Shown here: positions 5,990 through 22,757 of the stretch, one piece after another
How the letters are laid out: each line of letters begins with the position of its first letter
Position numbering within the stretch: the first letter of the stretch is position 1
The notes under the pieces: generated by a model
Database searches by the model: none
The model's input: only the letters and a program-made list of their open reading frames with translations
What the model was told of the DNA's origin: nothing
Translations under genes and position numbers: made by a program
Assembly (NCBI GenBank): GCA_050633245.1
Contig: JBOEGD010000046.1
Location: 1 to 22,757 of the forward strand
DNA length: 22,757 bases
Direction: 5' to 3'
Origin: Calditrichia bacterium
GTDB taxonomy: Bacteria > Calditrichota > Calditrichia > RBG-13-44-9 > J075

Positions 5990-6213
5990 GCGAAATAGAA
6001 GTACAAACCAATGGTTTTGGCAAGATTATTCTATTACTTTTTAAAGCTATCTTCTACGATGCTGACAATTAGCGTAGAACAACGCATTGTAGCATAAAAA
6101 AAACTGCACTGAAAGCTGTGCGATAGCTCGCTAAATTGCTTTTTTGCGAGCGTACGCTTGACAATACATAAACGATATTTGGTTAAAATGCTTTCCGCAG
6201 GTTTGGAAACGAT

Positions 6214-9560: not shown

Positions 9561-10373
9561 ATGCTGTTTCGCTTTGGTTTTCTTACAATTACGGTTTTTG
9601 ACCTGCTCGATATTACGCTGGTAGCATTCGTCTTTTATAAATTCTATCAGTTTATTCGCGGTAGCGTCGCAGCTCGAATGATTATCGGTCTGCTTATTAT
9701 CTTTGTCTTTTCTATACTGGCCGATCTTACCAACCTAAGTGGTGTTTCGTGGATATTCTCCAATCTGAAAACCATTTGGGTTATCGCATTCGTAATTATA
9801 TTTCAACCAGAGTTCAGGCGACTTCTGCTCTACATGGGGCAAAATCCCATTATCCAGCGTTTTGTAAGCGTCGAGCAGCCGAAATTTATCGAAGAGGTTG
9901 TCGGAGCTGCTGTCGATCTTTCGCACAAGAATTTTGGGGCACTTATTGTGTTGCTGCAGGAGACTGGAATAAAAGGAATTGTTGAAACCGGTTTGGATTT
10001 GAATGCAGAAGTGAGTCGACCACTATTGATGTCAATTTTTAATCCACGCTCTCCACTTCACGATGGTGCGGTCGTAGTTCAGTCCGATATTATTCTGGCC
10101 GCAAAATGCCAATTACCATTGACGCAAAACCCCGAGATTGATCATACGTATGGTATGAGACATCGTGCTGCTTTGGGGCTCTCTGAACAGACAGACTCGC
10201 TGGTGCTGGTTGTGAGTGAGGAGACCGGACATATCTCGATTGCTGAAAATGGACAAATTGACCGTAATTTATCGGAAGAGGAAGTCTTGGCGCGACTCAA
10301 TAAGACGTTTACCATGGCGCAGCGTAAGAAGTTTTCCTTTGCCGATTTTTTACATCGCAATGAATATGAATAA
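9561..10373 (+). CDS. cdaA: Membrane diadenylate cyclase CdaA (c-di-AMP synthase)
   Basis: Three N-terminal TM helices, FQPEFRR, and the DAC catalytic motifs PLHDGA and GMRHRAA, plus VVSEETG. Confidence 0.94.
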   Translation: MLFRFGFLTITVFDLLDITLVAFVFYKFYQFIRGSVAARMIIGLLIIFVFSILADLTNLSGVSWIFSNLKTIWVIAFVIIFQPEFRRLLLYMGQNPIIQRFVSVEQPKFIEEVVGAAVDLSHKNFGALIVLLQETGIKGIVETGLDLNAEVSRPLLMSIFNPRSPLHDGAVVVQSDIILAAKCQLPLTQNPEIDHTYGMRHRAALGLSEQTDSLVLVVSEETGHISIAENGQIDRNLSEEEVLARLNKTFTMAQRKKFSFADFLHRNEYE

Positions 10374-10517: not shown

Positions 10518-13500
10518 ATGAACTATAGAATGCACTATTTCTTTCTACTGTTATGTTCTTTGCTTGCAACATCTTTGCTGCAAATCGCTGCACAGTCCTC
10601 AGACAATCAATCTTTTTATCGCGTCACGTCACAAAGCTCTTCAGGGTTAACTATCGTTTTTGAATTCGATGAACCTGAAATGCAGCCCATTGCCGGTTTG
10701 GAGCAGGCATGGAGTGTGCAACTTTCGGGGTTAAAGCAAAATCACAATTCCGGTGATCCATTGCTGCCTGTTGTCGGCCTTCCGTTGGCTCTTCCTGAAG
10801 GACGCTCACGTATCAGCGTTGCAGTTCAAGAGGTAAAAGACTATCCCGGGCATTTCCCGCTTCTTTTTGTGGATGAATCTGCCAGCGCTGTTGAATCATC
10901 AACGCAAGTTAAGCCAGAGCGGTTTACTTCCCTTTTTCCGCAGGAATTTTGTCAGCTTCACGATCTTGGTATTATGCGGGATAATCGTCTGGGCTCGCTG
11001 CAGGTCTATCCAATTCAGGTAACCGCATCTGGTATGAAGTTTTATAAGCGCTTTGAAGTTCGTATTCAGTTTGAGCGGGCTCAAACCGGAAGCGCATCAC
11101 TCTCCGCTGCAGACACCAGAATGTTTAGTGATCTGGTTGTAAACAGCTCACAGCTTGGTTACAGCGTTGTAGAGACTCCTCAGCAGAACTATAAATCTTC
11201 CGCCCCACGCTTTATGAACTCGCAGGTGGGAAGTCGCTATCGCTTAATTGTGGATGAAGATGGTTTGTATCGGGTTACCGGTGAAGACTTGGAAGATGCG
11301 GGTGTTCGCCTCAGTGATATTCATACCGCTACGATGCGGTTGTCAAACCGCGATCAGGATGTTGCCTTCTACTTGTTTGGCGATCAGGATGGAAGCTTCG
11401 ATGAAGTGGATTTTTTTGAATTCTGGGGAGAGCGCAACGAAAAGAGCTTTCTGGAATCCTATCCCGATCAGTATTCCGATCCATTTAGCGATGAAAATGT
11501 TTACTGGCTTGAATGGGGCGTTGCGCCGGGTAATCGAATGGTAGAGGAAAATGGTAGCCTTACAGCCATTGTGCCGGGTGAATACAATCCTGCATTTAAC
11601 TACCGTCATACGACTCACCAAGAGAAAAACGAGTTTTTTGAGCGCTTCGGCAAAAGTCATCAGGAAACGCTCTCGCTTACGCGAGACAATTGGTTTTTCG
11701 ACAGCGGTATAAAAGCTGTTGGAAAGCGCGCTTATCCGTTTCAGCTTGAGCATCCCGATAATTCCTCGTTTAATAATGTTGTTGTAGAGGCGATGTTGGC
11801 TGGAAAATCTTTTGGCGCTGAGTTTAATGATGGAAATCCCTCTACTGATGACCGCGTCCCGCACAATGTGCAGCTTTGGCTCAACAATGGGTACGTAGGG
11901 AACGGGCCGAATAACTGGTTTAGTCAGGACACCGCACGTATTAGCAATGCTTCCTCATCGACGCTGCGCAATTCGGATTTGATTCATGGAACAAATGTGT
12001 TGGAGGTGCAGCTTCCCGAGCTTCCGGATATTACCATTCTTGTTAACGGTCAGACTGTTCCCAGTAAAGGCACAGATATTGTATTGTTAAACTGGTTTCA
12101 GATTACATACGATCGCCTGTATCGTGCGGAAAATAACATCGTTGAGTTTACGCGACCATCGTTTATCCCATTCCCGGACACGGATATTTTTCGCTTTGAA
12201 ATTGAAGGTTTTCGTAGGCCTGATGTCGAAATCTATAAAAAAGGTATTAGTCGTATCGTCAATTTCAAAATCGACCAGCGTATTACCGGCGATAGACTTG
12301 AACATGACATTACCTTTCAGGATGAAGTTGTAACGGATGACATTGAATATGTCGCGCTGACGCCTGAAATGAAAAAGAAGCCATTGCGAATCGAATTGGA
12401 TCGTCCTTATGATGAAGAAAACCCGAACTTAACCTTACGAGATGCTGCCAATGCAGCTGAGTATGTGATTTTAACTAATAATCGCTTTCGCAGCGCTGCA
12501 CAAGAACTGCTGGACTATCGACAGAGTCAGGGGATTATTGGGAAGATTGTTGCCGTTCAGGATATCTACGATGAATTCAACTCCGGCATTAAATCTCCGC
12601 TGGCAATTCGTGAATTTTTGCGTTACGCCTTTTTTAATTGGCAGCGTTCGCCCCGCCTGAAATATGTGGCGCTTCTTGGAGATGCCACTTTCGATTACAA
12701 GACAAAAGATGAGCTTGAGGGCGATTTTGTTCCAACCTATTTTTATCAGACCGACCTGTTTGGGGCTTCAGCGTCAGATTATCCCTATGCACTGATTGCA
12801 GGCGAAGATGAGCTGCCTGATTTAGCCATTGGTCGCATACCAGCCAACACCAACAGTGATATTCAGGGCTTCGTTTCCAAGCTGATTGAATACGATCAGG
12901 CTGAAGTAACAACGCCATGGCAAAGCCAGGCGCTATACATAAGCGGTAACGATCGCGCAACCTACGAACTTGAAAACCGATTTGGGCAGCAGTTCCCGGC
13001 ATTTCGCACTCAAAACTCACGCGTTATTTCTACGTTGATGCCAAAACATCTTTCCGGTGCACGGCTTAATACTGTACGGGATGAAACACTGCCGCTAAAC
13101 GAGTTTGATCCGAACTTTGGTACGCGTACCAGTCTGGTCGACCGTTGGAATGACGGTTTAATATTTATCAATTTTATGGGACACGGTGGTGGCGGTATTT
13201 GGGCCGATGACAACCTGCTCGATATTCCTGACGTAGAGCTGCTGAACAACAAAGGACGCTATCCTTTTGTGACGAGTATGACGTGTTTTACTGGTTCTTA
13301 CGAGAATCCTTCTACCGATGGCCTTGCAGAAAAACTGGTATTGGCACCTGATAAGGGAGCCATTGCCGTTCTTGCCTCTTCCGGATTAGGATATCTACAT
13401 AACGATTATACCATGCTCTGGTTTATAGGACAGTTTCTCTTTAGCGGTTCCAGAACGCTCGGTGAAAGTATGTTACTGGGAAAGACGCAGTACTGGAATA

Positions 13501-15638
13501 ATGGTGGTTATAATGTGAACGGTCGCGTTTACGGAACACCTGGCTACTCGGCTGTACGCCGGGAAATGGTGTATCAATATAACTTTATCGGCGACCCGCT
13601 GACGCGCTTTCGCTGGACCCCGAAAGACCTTTCCGTGCAGATTAACAATGCAACGCCGCAGCGTGGTGAAGTTGTTGACGTTACGGTTAACTCATCGTTT
13701 TTTGGTGCGGAAGGATATATCGAGCTTGTTGATCGAGATTTTAATATCGTCGATCGTCAGCCGGTGTTTGGCGCCGGACAAACCGTTACGTTAAATATGA
13801 CAATCCCGGATGACTTCCCTGAAGGAACAGGACTTTTCCGTGTCTATTTAGCCGATGGAACGGTTTCCGCCGGTGGTTCAGTTTCAATTGGCGTGAATTA
13901 CGGGGTCATCAACGATCTTACCATTAGCCCGGATGCACCTCGCGTAGATGACTCTGTAAAAGTACGTATTAATGCAGTTGATGTGAACGGACTGAATCGG
14001 GTCTATGTCATCACGGAAAATAATGTTGATTCTCTGTTCGCGGTTGCCGATCCACTTGAGCCGGACGTTTATATTGCTACATTGCCGCCGACCTTTCGTT
14101 TAAAAACCGTCTTTTTTAATGTGTATCTGGAAAATAATACCGGTAATGTCAGCGTATTCAGTAACCAAAGCTATATTGTTACTGATCAGCGGGCTGATGT
14201 CTTTTTTGCGAATCAATCCCTTGGCTTCTTCGGCGATCGTAGAGCAAAACTGCGTGTCGGATTAGAAAACTCTGCCGGCGCGGGTGCTGATAATCAAATT
14301 GTGGTAAACGTTCAGGCTTATGACGGCATTCAGAATTACACAAATAATGTGTCGTTTGCAAATGCGAGCACCGTTTTAAGCAGTCTGGATAGTACATCTG
14401 TTTCTCTTGATTTTACCCTGCCACTCGACCGCCCTGCTTATGACTTATTGCTGAAGGCGACAGTGTCGGAGAATGAAGATGTAATCGACTTTAATGCAAC
14501 TAATGACACGCTTCGACAGACGATTGCGCCGCTTATCTATAATGTGAGTCCGTCCGCAGGCTTGGATACGATTGTTCTGCGTTCGCGTTTTCGCACCAGC
14601 TTTGCTCCATCCGGGATTAGCGACTCGAGTGCCGTGCGCATTGCAGTTCGAGAAATTGATGCGCCTGCAAATCAGACCGGTCTGATGCCCATCTCGCTTC
14701 TGCAGCAGGGGGAATTTAATGCCTTGGATGTGGAATTGTTAAACCCGGACGCACAGCTAACGATTCCCTACACAATCGAAATCACCTTAAACGAGTCGCT
14801 GATAGATACGAATGAGTTTAACCTGCAGGATGTTAGACTCTACGAGAAGCGTAGTGGAAGTGCCCCCTGGACGTTTGTTAATTCAATATTTGATGCCACT
14901 ACCCGACGACTGACGGCTCAGAGCTCGCGGAGCAGTAGTTTTGCGATTTTCTTTAGTGATGATTTGCAGCCGCCGACTATCGAACTGACCGCAGATGGTA
15001 GACCACTTCGCGAGAGTGGGTTAGTTGGTAGCACACCTTCGCTTTATTTGGTGCTGCAGGATGCCAGCGGTATAGATACTCAAAAAGATCGCGTCGAAAT
15101 TCTATTGGATGAACAACCCTTTCCCGAAGATAAACTCTTTATCCCGGACTCAGTGGCGCGCAATGATATTGTGGGATTCACGCTGTTTCCCGAGCTTAAC
15201 CGTGGGACGCATGATCTCGCAATTCGAGTTCAGGATGTGAATGGAATCAGCGCCGAGTCTACATTTAAACTACAGGTGCAGGAAGACTTTGATTTGAAGG
15301 TCTACGGAAACTATCCGAATCCATTCGTAGACGAAACCATATTTTCCTACTTCGTCGAATTAAATGACGATCTGGATAAGTTTGAAATTCGCATTTATAC
15401 TATCAGTGGCCGCCGTATAAAAACGATAAGCTCAGATGAAAATAACCCACTCGATGCGCTCGATGGAGGTGCACGGCGTAAAGGATATAACGAGCTGGTT
15501 TGGGATGGCACGGATGATGATCTGCAGGAAGTGGCGTATGGCGTTTACTTTGCTGTGGTTCGCGCGACGTATGAGGGCGAAACTATTGAAAAGACGCTGA
15601 AAGTCGCAAAAGTCCAGGTCGAGAACCCTGGCAATTAG
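10518..15638 (+). CDS. Large secreted C25-family (gingipain/PorU-like) cysteine peptidase with C-terminal T9SS type A CTD/FlgD-Ig-like domain
   Basis: Signal peptide and propeptide-like N-terminus. PorU-like segments (GLYRVTGEDL, DIYDEFNSG, YVALLGDA, PDLAIGRIP). Catalytic dyad GHG (His889, 13182) and MTC (Cys923, 13284). C-terminal NYPNPF...IRIYTISGRRIKTI...WDGTD...GVYF...KVAKV. Confidence 0.88.
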   Translation: MNYRMHYFFLLLCSLLATSLLQIAAQSSDNQSFYRVTSQSSSGLTIVFEFDEPEMQPIAGLEQAWSVQLSGLKQNHNSGDPLLPVVGLPLALPEGRSRISVAVQEVKDYPGHFPLLFVDESASAVESSTQVKPERFTSLFPQEFCQLHDLGIMRDNRLGSLQVYPIQVTASGMKFYKRFEVRIQFERAQTGSASLSAADTRMFSDLVVNSSQLGYSVVETPQQNYKSSAPRFMNSQVGSRYRLIVDEDGLYRVTGEDLEDAGVRLSDIHTATMRLSNRDQDVAFYLFGDQDGSFDEVDFFEFWGERNEKSFLESYPDQYSDPFSDENVYWLEWGVAPGNRMVEENGSLTAIVPGEYNPAFNYRHTTHQEKNEFFERFGKSHQETLSLTRDNWFFDSGIKAVGKRAYPFQLEHPDNSSFNNVVVEAMLAGKSFGAEFNDGNPSTDDRVPHNVQLWLNNGYVGNGPNNWFSQDTARISNASSSTLRNSDLIHGTNVLEVQLPELPDITILVNGQTVPSKGTDIVLLNWFQITYDRLYRAENNIVEFTRPSFIPFPDTDIFRFEIEGFRRPDVEIYKKGISRIVNFKIDQRITGDRLEHDITFQDEVVTDDIEYVALTPEMKKKPLRIELDRPYDEENPNLTLRDAANAAEYVILTNNRFRSAAQELLDYRQSQGIIGKIVAVQDIYDEFNSGIKSPLAIREFLRYAFFNWQRSPRLKYVALLGDATFDYKTKDELEGDFVPTYFYQTDLFGASASDYPYALIAGEDELPDLAIGRIPANTNSDIQGFVSKLIEYDQAEVTTPWQSQALYISGNDRATYELENRFGQQFPAFRTQNSRVISTLMPKHLSGARLNTVRDETLPLNEFDPNFGTRTSLVDRWNDGLIFINFMGHGGGGIWADDNLLDIPDVELLNNKGRYPFVTSMTCFTGSYENPSTDGLAEKLVLAPDKGAIAVLASSGLGYLHNDYTMLWFIGQFLFSGSRTLGESMLLGKTQYWNNGGYNVNGRVYGTPGYSAVRREMVYQYNFIGDPLTRFRWTPKDLSVQINNATPQRGEVVDVTVNSSFFGAEGYIELVDRDFNIVDRQPVFGAGQTVTLNMTIPDDFPEGTGLFRVYLADGTVSAGGSVSIGVNYGVINDLTISPDAPRVDDSVKVRINAVDVNGLNRVYVITENNVDSLFAVADPLEPDVYIATLPPTFRLKTVFFNVYLENNTGNVSVFSNQSYIVTDQRADVFFANQSLGFFGDRRAKLRVGLENSAGAGADNQIVVNVQAYDGIQNYTNNVSFANASTVLSSLDSTSVSLDFTLPLDRPAYDLLLKATVSENEDVIDFNATNDTLRQTIAPLIYNVSPSAGLDTIVLRSRFRTSFAPSGISDSSAVRIAVREIDAPANQTGLMPISLLQQGEFNALDVELLNPDAQLTIPYTIEITLNESLIDTNEFNLQDVRLYEKRSGSAPWTFVNSIFDATTRRLTAQSSRSSSFAIFFSDDLQPPTIELTADGRPLRESGLVGSTPSLYLVLQDASGIDTQKDRVEILLDEQPFPEDKLFIPDSVARNDIVGFTLFPELNRGTHDLAIRVQDVNGISAESTFKLQVQEDFDLKVYGNYPNPFVDETIFSYFVELNDDLDKFEIRIYTISGRRIKTISSDENNPLDALDGGARRKGYNELVWDGTDDDLQEVAYGVYFAVVRATYEGETIEKTLKVAKVQVENPGN

Positions 15639-19555: not shown

Positions 19556-19587
19556 AAAATCCCCCGGATTCCGGGGGATTTTTTTTT
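19556..19587 (+). terminator. Rho-independent terminator
   Basis: AAAATCCCCCGGA-T-TCCGGGGGATTTT inverted repeat running into T9. Confidence 0.88.
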
Positions 19588-21704: not shown

Positions 21705-22406
21705 ATGTATAGTAGTTCGCCCGGAATGAATATTACCCCGGCAATAAAAAATATTATCCTGACATGTGTTGCGGTATTCTTTTTTCAGTCAACGCTTGCA
21801 AGTTCTTTGAATGAAACGCTCAGCTTTCTGATGCCGGAGAACTCGGCATGGTATTATGGAAATGTCTTTGAGATGATCTTTGGTGTGTTGCCAAACTTGT
21901 TTATGAATAGCTTTTTCGTGTGGCAACCTTTCACCTACATGTGGCTGCACGGTGATTTTTGGCATATCTTCTTCAATCTGATTATTGTCTGGATGTTTGG
22001 TAGTGAGCTGGAGCGTCAGTGGGGGACGCGTGAATTTTGGAGATATTACCTTTTTACGGGAATAGCTGCCGGTGTAACAATTCTGGTGTGGAATGGTTTT
22101 TTTGCTCCAAATATACCAACGATTGGCGCGTCGGGTGCGGTATTCGGATTGCTTGCAGCCTATGCACTTTTTTATCCGGACAATTACATCTATTTTTGGT
22201 TCTTTCTACCAATCAAAACTAAATACTTCGTCGCACTGATTGCCGTATTTGAGTTTTTCTCTATTTCTGCAGCAGATGGTGTATCACATATTGGGCATAT
22301 TGGTGGACTCATTGCCGGCTATTTTTACATTCGCCATAAGTATAAACGCGAAGGTATTGGCCGAACCTTCTTTCAGGATTTCTTTAAAAAAAAAGGCCAT
22401 TTTTAG
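21705..22406 (+). CDS. Rhomboid family intramembrane serine protease (zero-frame product, 233 aa)
   Basis: WQPFTYMWLHGDFWHIFFN, catalytic GASG, C-terminal HIGHIGG (catalytic His), multiple TM helices. Confidence 0.93.
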   Translation: MYSSSPGMNITPAIKNIILTCVAVFFFQSTLASSLNETLSFLMPENSAWYYGNVFEMIFGVLPNLFMNSFFVWQPFTYMWLHGDFWHIFFNLIIVWMFGSELERQWGTREFWRYYLFTGIAAGVTILVWNGFFAPNIPTIGASGAVFGLLAAYALFYPDNYIYFWFFLPIKTKYFVALIAVFEFFSISAADGVSHIGHIGGLIAGYFYIRHKYKREGIGRTFFQDFFKKKGHF

Positions 22407-22681
22407 GCTCCAAACCTCCTTCCTCTTCGCCATTTAGTAAATTTGAGCTGCCGAAGCTGGGTCGCTCAGACAAATCCAAGAAGTCCAAAGAAATATCATT
22501 AGACGATCTCCTTGATAAAATTAGCAAGAAGGGGATGGGGTCGTTGACTGCTGAAGAGCGTGACATATTGAAAAAGGAAGCGGATAAACTGAACGGAAAT
22601 CGACCAGATTATCGGATATCCGATAGCGATGACCCGGAGGGGGAAGATGGTGGAATGGAAGAACCGAGGGATAAGAACTAG
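22388..22681 (+). other. -1 frame continuation of the rhomboid gene encoding a DUF6576-like soluble C-terminal domain
   Basis: Open frame from just after TAA 22385-22387 to TAG 22679-22681: KKRPFLGSKPPSSSPFSKFELPKLGRSDKSKKSKEISLDDLLDKISKKGMGSLTAEERDILKKEADKLNGNRPDYRISDSDDPEGEDGGMEEPRDKN. The LDKISxxGxxSLTxEE motif typifies rhomboid C-terminal tails. No ATG/GTG/TTG precedes the motif. Confidence 0.8.
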
Positions 22682-22712: not shown

Positions 22713-22757
22713 ATATAAAAAAAGCCTCCGGGAATTTCCCGGAGGCTTTTTTTATAT
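22713..22757. terminator. Bidirectional Rho-independent terminator
   Basis: Perfect 22-bp inverted repeat ATATAAAAAAAGCCTCCGGGAA-T-TTCCCGGAGGCTTTTTTTATAT with A7/T7 flanks. Confidence 0.88.

Follow-up and report, generated by a model that had tools for sequence, protein, structure and literature searches.

A candidate recoding site at an A9 tract between a rhomboid protease and an out-of-frame DUF6576 tail in a Calditrichia bacterium

If the reading frame of a complete protease stops just ahead of a domain that is encoded one base out of step, the question arises whether the gene is damaged, whether two genes adjoin or whether one gene is read in two ways. This question is posed by a rhomboid protease gene from a Calditrichia bacterium (NCBI GenBank assembly GCA_050633245.1, contig JBOEGD010000046.1, positions 1 to 22,757 of the forward strand; this whole stretch of 22,757 nucleotides is referred to as the window). 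Close to its stop codon the gene carries an uninterrupted run of nine adenines (A9), and it is at this run that a second frame opens, which encodes a DUF6576 domain (Table 1). We regard conserved recoding at the A9 tract of this cellular gene as the probable explanation, by which a protease of 233 residues and a DUF6576-tailed isoform of 325 residues would both be formed. A first-pass annotation of the same DNA had already proposed that slippage or frameshifting at a conserved site yields a short protease and a tailed form, and the comparative evidence compiled here favors this idea.

By direct reading of the sequence, the open reading frame (ORF) of the rhomboid closes with TTT AAA AAA AAA GGC CAT TTT TAG, and its product, P0002, ends in FFKKKGHF. 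The frame of the tail is itself closed by a TAA at the beginning of the A run. As both frames are open nowhere else, a change of frame must fall within the 16 nucleotides they share, and one extra A joins them into a protein of 230 + 95 = 325 amino acids. The positions that the first-pass annotation had assigned to the A9 tract, the two closing codons TAG and TAA, a Shine-Dalgarno (SD)-like AGGA motif, the 95-residue -1 frame and the 325-residue fusion were each correct. Within the window's 16 long ORFs, the tract is the sole homopolymer of at least nine nucleotides and also the sole AAA AAA AAA triple, the longest other homopolymers inside these ORFs measuring 7 nucleotides; A runs of nine or more are expected about 0.13 times per window. 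The remaining long homopolymers, T9 (19579-19587) and A8 (6096-6103), are both intergenic. Standing at the meeting point of two frames, A9 has the length of about nine or more identical bases asked for in transcriptional realignment, and the in-phase A_AAA_AAA contained in it corresponds to the X_XXY_YYZ pattern of slippery heptamers in programmed -1 ribosomal frameshifting. As to the AGGA motif, it is a 4-mer inside Gln-Asp codons, Asp is common in the family, and the anti-SD sequence of the host lies outside the window.

The protein encoded in the zero frame is in itself a complete rhomboid. P0002 matches Pfam family PF01694 over residues 72-209 (E-value 4e-31; 108.6 bits, cut-off 22.6), and S143 (in GASGA), H198, H82, H87 and N91 occupy invariant columns in an alignment of 36 sequences. 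The catalytic Ser/His dyad and the HxxxN motif of helix 2 are all encoded 5' of A9, before residue 230. GlpG from H. influenzae is the nearest solved structure (2nr9, E 4.5e-5). The scores of P0002 stay below the NCBIfam equivalog cut-offs for rhombosortase (35.7 versus 84 bits) and GlpG (19.6 versus 335 and 17.9 versus 250 bits); judged by its sequence, it is a rhomboid, but one of neither named subfamily. Two candidate ATG start codons are present, at 21705 and 21726, seven codons apart, and it is at the second that the closest homologue, P0003, begins.

The 95-residue tail, P0001, consists of a basic Ser/Pro-rich linker, DUF6576 and an acidic end. It matches PF20216 at profile positions 10-43 of 47 (E-value 5.2e-9; 36.5 bits, cut-off 27.3). 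The codon-usage log-likelihood of its frame amounts to +18.0 over 90 codons, as compared to -32 and -64 for the other two frames, to 24.0 +/- 6.3 for the real frames of the window and to 18.3 for the rhomboid ORF; given the frequency of stop triplets in the window, an open frame of 98 codons has a probability of about 0.011. By its Pfam match and its codon usage, the tail is genuine coding sequence. Its frame is devoid of ATG, GTG or TTG before 22535 (47 codons), and the TAA at 22385 closes it, which rules out independent initiation of the tail from further upstream. Gene callers report a 48-residue ORF, P0125, from the ATG at 22535; it is an annotation by-product of the split.

Table 1. Features at the 3' end of the rhomboid gene, with positions in the window
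Feature	Position	Strand	Remarks
Rhomboid ORF P0002, zero frame, short isoform	21705..22406	+	233 aa; Pfam Rhomboid PF01694
SD-like AGGA	22375..22378	+	9 nt 5' of slippery heptamer; candidate stimulator of a -1 shift
TAA closing the tail (-1) frame	22385..22387	+	at start of A run; tail frame reads ...SGFL, stop, then KKRPFL
A9 tract, proposed slippage site	22386..22394	+	AAA AAA AAA, KKK in zero frame
Heptamer A_AAA_AAA within A9	22388-22394	+	in phase with zero frame
Sole 16 nt with both frames open	22388..22403	+	A9 included
Zero-frame stop TAG	22404..22406	+	three codons past A9
Tail coding region P0001, -1 frame	22394..22681	+	95 aa; stop TAG 22679-22681
DUF6576 core, residues 26-61 of P0001	22469..22576	+	Pfam PF20216
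ORF P0125 reported by gene callers	22535..22681	+	48 aa; ATG inside DUF6576
Intrinsic terminator	22713..22757	+	perfect hairpin of about 21 pairs, flanks A7 / T7; found by folding

The first-pass annotation had stated that the terminator comes only after the end of the -1 frame, and this is borne out: counted from the start of the rhomboid gene, the first terminator is a hairpin beyond the end of the tail (-32.6 kcal/mol, z -7.6, equalled by 0 of 200 shuffles), and the stretch from the zero-frame stop to the last codon of the tail is free of intrinsic terminators. A simple terminator scan gave no site after 22134 and overlooked this hairpin, which was detected by folding. Its A7 and T7 flanks would allow it to stop transcripts arriving from either side; the end of the window is 4 nucleotides further on.

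Is the short form peculiar to this genome? A protein search with the 233-residue P0002, covering lengths of 128-408 residues, gave 4434 matches, the best 120 of which were analyzed; in this length range a 325-residue fusion would have been detected. Among these 120, the top 79 rows including P0002 itself are 154-242 residues long and share 43-80% identity, DUF6576 is found in none of them, and some carry protein names from Calditrichia or Calditrichota metagenome-assembled genomes (MAGs). In all of the 76 short homologues (76/76) the C-terminus is formed by a basic cluster and 0-5 further residues, the last of which is mostly aromatic, and half of them (38/76) end in FFKKK plus 1-4 residues. 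Examples are FFKKKGRF, FFKKKDRW, FFKKKGPF, LFRKRGPF and FFKKKW, and the end of P0033, FFKKKGHF, is identical to that of the window protein. In-frame fusions with DUF6576 make up 0 of the 76 closest full-length homologues; fused forms (249-281 residues) start at row 81, and the rhomboid domain of the window is 39-51% identical to those whose tail is recognized by Pfam. In a quick IQ-TREE phylogeny of the core domain, calculated for 117 of the 120 rows (two proteins shorter than 195 residues and one without the HxGG motif were dropped), fused forms occupy 31 rows, and all of them, together with forms carrying other C-termini, reside beyond one branch (98). The window protein groups with P0003 (100) within a clan of 21 short-form rows (99) that also contains P0033 and P0008. 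The short C-terminus is thus general in the clade, and the zero-frame stop is no lesion peculiar to this genome. The statement of the first-pass annotation that DUF6576 is normally fused to rhomboids holds for other phyla (in-frame tails at 28 of the 80 loci described below) but fails for this clade (0/76), and instead of close orthologues that are all continuous in-frame fusions, which it had named as a finding that would speak against its own proposal, the opposite was encountered.

The tail itself recurs in other sources. A HMMER pass with the 95-residue tail over 1.84 billion representatives returned three matches (P0122, P0123 and P0124), and a word-indexed search with an 80-residue piece of it gave four matches among six candidates (P0125 from the window, P0122, P0126 and P0127). 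Three of these are separate small ORFs with 75-96% identity to the window tail, namely P0122 (50 residues, 96% identical, source jgi, on a contig of 3631 bp), P0126 (52 residues, source gem) and P0127 (44 residues, source lgn, on a contig of 1300 bp). Columns matching the window tail number 46 of 50 in P0122 and 36 of 48 in both P0126 and P0127, and in each of the three 25-28 of the 29 core residues are identical to the window. Differences in length from the window tail occur in whole codons only and are confined to the acidic end; such exclusively in-frame insertions or deletions, combined with a conserved core, suggest purifying selection on the tail frame. P0122 and P0127 start at the same internal Met as P0125. 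P0126 starts eight residues earlier, and there DKISKKG is identical to the window in 7 of 7 positions; likewise, P0124 agrees with the window upstream of the internal Met in LDDLLDKI (8/8). A separate small tail ORF implies that the tail is out of frame with the preceding gene, as is the case for P0125 of the window itself. The tail is out of frame in all five tail-bearing sources seen (the window, P0122, P0126, P0127 and P0124). The partners of P0122, P0126 and P0127 would be members of the window's own rhomboid cluster or P0003 (80% identity), because no other rhomboid clusters are similar enough. A profile search for small ORFs with 26 tails led to 175 matches at E-values up to 10, and the best 120 of these are mostly fragments of in-frame fusions on short contigs or free-standing proteins composed of a membrane helix and DUF6576; no further hidden tail was recognized among them.

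These counts bear on phase variation, i.e. replication slippage between A9 and A10 that switches a population between genotypes for the short protease only and for the fused protease, which the first-pass annotation had offered as an alternative. Runs as long as this one are hypermutable both when DNA is replicated and when it is transcribed, as far as the available parts of PMC1088944 and PMC3711429 report, a single added A restores the fusion, and selection on the tail is to be expected if ON variants are regularly used. The fused, ON state is, however, encountered in none of the 76 short-clade proteins among the best 120 of 4434, and all five sources of the tail have it out of frame. ON and OFF alleles side by side were thus not seen, albeit on indirect evidence. 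Moreover, a rhomboid with a cytoplasmic tail is no gene of the surface-antigen or restriction-modification type, and slippage at the RNA level would happen on the same tract regardless. We therefore consider phase variation an improbable explanation.

The most distant source of the tail is the most informative about the site. P0124 (80 residues) is 42% identical to the tail over 78 aligned residues (tblastn E 3e-15), and its residues 4-69 align wholly in the tail frame of the window (22358-22591). This also applies to the portion that precedes the A run, where the window reads WPNLLSGFL, stop, and then KKRPFL. P0033 is a short rhomboid that shares 48% identity with that of the window, and its C-terminus is compatible, at 19 of 19 positions including the stop, with the frame one base downstream of the first 20 codons of P0124. 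In 300 controls with shuffled peptides the mean maximum was 8.0 and the maximum 12, the opposite shift also reached 12, and when the overlap test was applied to 126 small ORFs, P0124 alone fitted (1/126). Joint back-translation of P0124 and P0033 has 24 solutions, each of which, like the window itself, has an A9 with GGCCA behind it. We infer that in this lineage, too, the rhomboid is encoded in frame 0 with a stop three codons after KKK and the DUF6576 tail in frame -1, and the same A9 tract is very probably present. Given this pairing, a purine-rich GGGA lies at the spacing that AGGA has in the window. The stretch differs by a synonymous TTC for TTT ahead of the run, which removes the TAA from the tail frame and so lets gene callers extend the ORF of P0124 upstream. 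That P0124 might represent an in-frame fusion including its junction, as its N-terminus resembles a rhomboid end of the FF..FFKK type, was considered and rejected on the grounds of the tblastn frame and the overlap fit with P0033.

Could the gene simply be broken, an ancestral fusion having lost one A recently or in the assembly, with the tail decaying or the true gene being a plain 325-residue fusion? In-frame fusions with DUF6576 are common in other phyla (28/80 loci, 31/117 tree rows), homopolymers are classic sites of indel errors and mutations, and codon usage alone makes KKK written as A9 about 24% likely. The same split is, however, found in independent assemblies with tail identities of 96%, about 80% and 40-49%, with intact tails and whole-codon indels, and a neutral remnant would not outlast a divergence that leaves the rhomboid domain 48-80% identical. 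The zero-frame end also agrees with the conserved end of the clade, no fused clade member occurs among the best 120 of 4434 matches, and the remaining 15 ORFs of the window are intact, including those with runs of A7 or T7; the intactness of the other genes indicates that the assembly is not prone to frameshifts. The first-pass annotation had regarded an assembly error as an equally real possibility. In light of its recurrence, the split is now unlikely to stem from such an error or from a recent mutation, and a damaged or artificially interrupted gene has a poor chance of being the right explanation.

A further alternative is separate translation of the tail, which would yield a cytoplasmic DUF6576 peptide; ribosomes could begin at the ATG at 22535 or at a non-canonical start, or re-initiate once past the TAG. 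It is in this form that gene callers report P0125, P0122, P0126 and P0127, the tail frame in the lineage of P0124 is open upstream to an NTG codon, and free-standing DUF6576 proteins with a membrane helix of their own exist (P0222, P0235 and P0237). The ATG at 22535 (Met 48), however, falls within the Pfam domain (residues 26-61), so that the product would lose the conserved LDDLLDKISKKG half, and this LDDLLDKISKKG half is conserved in P0126 and P0124. In the window the tail frame is closed by TAA and then lacks ATG, GTG and TTG for 47 codons, and the GG-rich stretch that abuts the ATG is too near for typical ribosome-binding spacing. A separate small protein thus appears very improbable. Recoding at the A9 tract explains best that the tail is under selection, that it has no start of its own in the window and that the two frames overlap by 16 nucleotides, most of which are A9.

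Several observations weigh against recoding. A scan of genome contigs with the rhomboid led to at least 600 stretches, the best 80 of which were kept as loci. The closest of these loci is only 47% identical, six are named Calditrichia, Calditrichaceae, Caldithrix or Calditrichota, and the split arrangement is present in none of the 80; in-frame tails are found in 28 of them, Calditrichota loci L004 and L027 included. In the short-form loci L001, L002 and L003 the protein ends in FFKRQDRW, FFRRRGPF and FFKKKGNF, respectively, the basic cluster is written as aag cgg cag, cgc cgc cgc and aag aaa aag without any A run, no AGGA-like motif stands at the corresponding place, and no DUF6576 follows downstream in any frame. 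In these three loci, tblastn with three tails at E-values up to 1 gave just a 20-residue shadow match in L002. The nearest protein to L001 is P0008 from the window's clan, those nearest to L002 and L003 are P0066 and P0056 from the other short clade. That loss of the tail accompanies loss of the tract in L001-L003 speaks for recoding. On the other side, the tail is dispensable in several lineages, and tail-less relatives retain the short C-terminus, which indicates that the short form suffices for some function.

Other reservations concern the site itself and the relatives to which it was compared. KKK would be encoded as A9 by chance in about 24% of cases (codon usage in the window: AAA 203, AAG 125). 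No stimulatory structure follows the site, as the fold of 86 nucleotides has a z of -0.26 (80 of 200 shuffles as good) and that of 201 nucleotides a z of +0.60; a hairpin or pseudoknot of programmed -1 frameshifting should lie 5-9 nucleotides after the site, but the one stable hairpin nearby begins 47 nucleotides downstream of it. Nor is there an Rfam frameshift element at the slip site, all sub-threshold matches lying on the hairpin region at 22713-22757. In E. coli, A_AAA_AAA is less shift-prone than A_AAA_AAG according to the portion of PMC5009743 available. The assignment of P0122, P0126 and P0127 to particular rhomboids rests on similarity, as does the pairing of P0124 with P0033 on the fit of their overlap, and A9 is conserved in that lineage on condition that the pairing is right. 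Finally, the upstream NTG in the tail frame of the P0124 lineage could permit independent initiation.

Two further features of the relatives deserve mention. Past the basic cluster of tail-less L002 (1620-1690), the -1 frame still has R-P-L-L-R ahead of a stop, matching the Arg-Pro-Leu-Leu entry of P0124; these residues may have survived from a tail since lost or merely shadow the zero-frame G-P-F. In L005 (1620-2190), from a Calditrichia MAG, the rhomboid diverges from all homologues after ...DGIAH, before the catalytic His motif, and the gene looks broken or rearranged, continuing into unrelated sequence.

How would recoding at the A9 tract work? Standard decoding would lead to the catalytically complete rhomboid of 233 residues and six helices, ending with FFKKKGHF just inside the cytoplasm. 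Part of the expression would shift to the -1 frame within 22388-22403, adding the 95-residue extension of linker, DUF6576 and acidic end and giving rise to the 325-residue isoform. Both termini of GlpG and other six-helix rhomboids face the cytoplasm (N-in/C-in), and from this topology the extension, too, is expected to be cytoplasmic. The shift could be brought about by RNA polymerase slippage, one extra A in the mRNA joining the frames. Alternatively or in addition, a -1 slip of the ribosome on A_AAA_AAA, possibly aided by AGGA, would produce the same protein. If recoding occurs, we consider slippage of the polymerase the somewhat likelier mechanism, because an uninterrupted A9 exceeds what a ribosomal heptamer needs, because the pure run seems to be kept together with the tail and broken where the tail is lost, and because neither a downstream structure nor an Rfam element is present. 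In addition, nine adenines is a length for which slippage and counter-selection are documented in the accessible part of PMC1088944, and A_AAA_AAA is a weaker ribosomal site in E. coli than A_AAA_AAG, as far as the available text of PMC5009743 goes. The ribosomal route known from dnaX stays open because of the AGGA 9 nucleotides upstream and a similar motif in the stretch deduced for P0033 and P0124.

More tentatively, recoding may be ancient and extend across a whole clan of Calditrichota rhomboids, although on the sequences at hand we would rather doubt it. The last two or three zero-frame codons and the stop would then be the shadow of a conserved passage in the -1 frame, Arg-Pro-[Phe/Leu]-[Leu/Val], that leads to a hidden DUF6576 tail, a proposition we hold with the same hesitation. 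In the zero frame the residues after KKK vary between D and G and then between H, R, L and P; these changes are radical there, but the same changes can be synonymous in the -1 frame (AGA or AGG, then CCN). An R-P reading in the -1 frame is possible for 29 of the 71 short forms whose basic cluster has three residues, among them nearly every member of the clan to which the window protein belongs.

Programmed -1 frameshifting in E. coli dnaX makes use of an A-rich heptamer, an SD-like element about 10 nucleotides upstream and a downstream structure. The rhomboid site shares with this system and with insertion sequences of the IS3/IS911 types the in-phase A-rich heptamer, the SD-like element and a -1 frame that holds an extra domain, and with the IS3 type also a zero-frame stop soon after the slip site. 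It differs from E. coli dnaX and IS3 in that the heptamer is A_AAA_AAA and not A_AAA_AAG, in that there is no downstream hairpin or pseudoknot and in that the gene does not belong to a mobile element. A_AAA_AAA is among the consensus heptamers given in the part of PMC3711429 available, which also describes some dnaX genes as two ORFs joined at A7-A10 tracts.

As regards transcriptional slippage, the available portion of PMC1088944 reports that in Thermus thermophilus dnaX slippage on A9 leads to mRNAs with a variable number of A residues and to about 50% altered product, and that runs of 9A or 9T are selected against in many genomes. Judged from that portion, the rhomboid gene resembles Thermus dnaX in having A9 late in a cellular, non-mobile gene and in the prediction of products with a shared N-terminal body and differing C-termini. 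There, however, the templated frame encodes the long product and slippage the short one, whereas here the templated form is short and slippage would add a domain; the protein family is another one, and the isoforms of the rhomboid are predicted from sequence. The closest match in architecture is tssM of Citrobacter rodentium and Yersinia pseudotuberculosis, in which, according to the accessible text of PMC4256274, the C-terminal domain is regained by transcriptional frameshifting at an A11 tract, so that two length variants are made, both of which are needed. In both cases the gene for a membrane protein is interrupted after poly-A, with a short templated and a long slipped form; tssM differs, to the extent covered by that text, in its A11 instead of A9, in having been demonstrated experimentally and in its periplasmic extension, as opposed to the presumably cytoplasmic one of the rhomboid. 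The in-frame rhomboid-DUF6576 fusions of Ignavibacteria, Zixibacteria, Chlorobi, Spirochaetota and some Calditrichota (L004, L027) contain the same domains in the same order and with a basic linker. They are distinguished by a continuous frame of 250-330 residues, by another juxtamembrane sequence and by their position beyond the branch valued 98.

What the tail might contribute can be approached through DUF6576 itself, on which a literature search for 'DUF6576' returned no papers. AlphaFold2, run on an alignment of 26 sequences, places helices at residues 21-31 and 38-52 of the 80-residue query, with block means of the predicted local distance difference test (pLDDT) of 78-84 over residues 21-50 and 64 overall, and the core is thus predicted, with moderate confidence, to consist of two helices. 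A sequence profile of the tail found nothing below an E-value of 0.24 in the PDB. The free-standing proteins P0222, P0235 and P0237, each 80 residues long, combine one hydrophobic N-terminal helix with DUF6576 and reside on contigs of up to 25 kb, P0237 being present on six contigs. Since DUF6576 also occurs alone in this way, anchored by a single membrane helix, we would guess at a regulatory or oligomerization module. P0123 (274 residues) has no rhomboid part and features two stretches that resemble DUF6576, one near residue 124 and one near residue 241.

The window is an ordinary chromosomal stretch in which tilS-like, hpt, ftsH, folE, folP, cdaA, a C25 peptidase gene, a deaminase gene and proS are intact and all run on the plus strand. 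A CdaA-type diadenylate cyclase (9561-10373, plus strand; DAC and CdaA N-terminal membrane domains) is encoded directly after folP in a housekeeping block of tilS-like, hpt, ftsH, folE, a gene for a TPR protein and folP. An ORF of 1706 residues (10518-15638, plus strand) encodes a gingipain-type Peptidase_C25 (E 3.9e-87) with propeptide and is followed by ORFs without Pfam match and by ORFs with fn3 and SLBB domains.

To our knowledge, few instances of conserved recoding have been described in ordinary bacterial genes, outside phages and insertion sequences; prfB, dnaX and tssM are among them. The type of mechanism is known; the gene family and the phylum are new for it. We found no literature that links rhomboids or DUF6576 to frameshifting or slippage, the word 'rhomboid' being absent from the main text of PMC3711429 and from the first 300,000 characters of PMC5009743; the supplementary cluster tables of PMC3711429 might list such a cluster.

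If correct, a rhomboid that exists in a core and a tailed form from one gene would constitute a new case of recoding in a barely studied phylum. It would also provide a handle on DUF6576, as a domain whose presence can be tuned at the RNA level would suggest regulation of the protease or of its partners. Annotation pipelines render such genes as a short protease and an orphan ORF of 44-80 residues, and the long isoform therefore stays invisible in databases. Should the more tentative, clade-wide view prove right as well, many rhomboids annotated as short in MAGs would encode two isoforms, the ratio of which would be set by slippage of RNA polymerase on a selected A9 tract, and lineages that lost the tail would have lost the tract.

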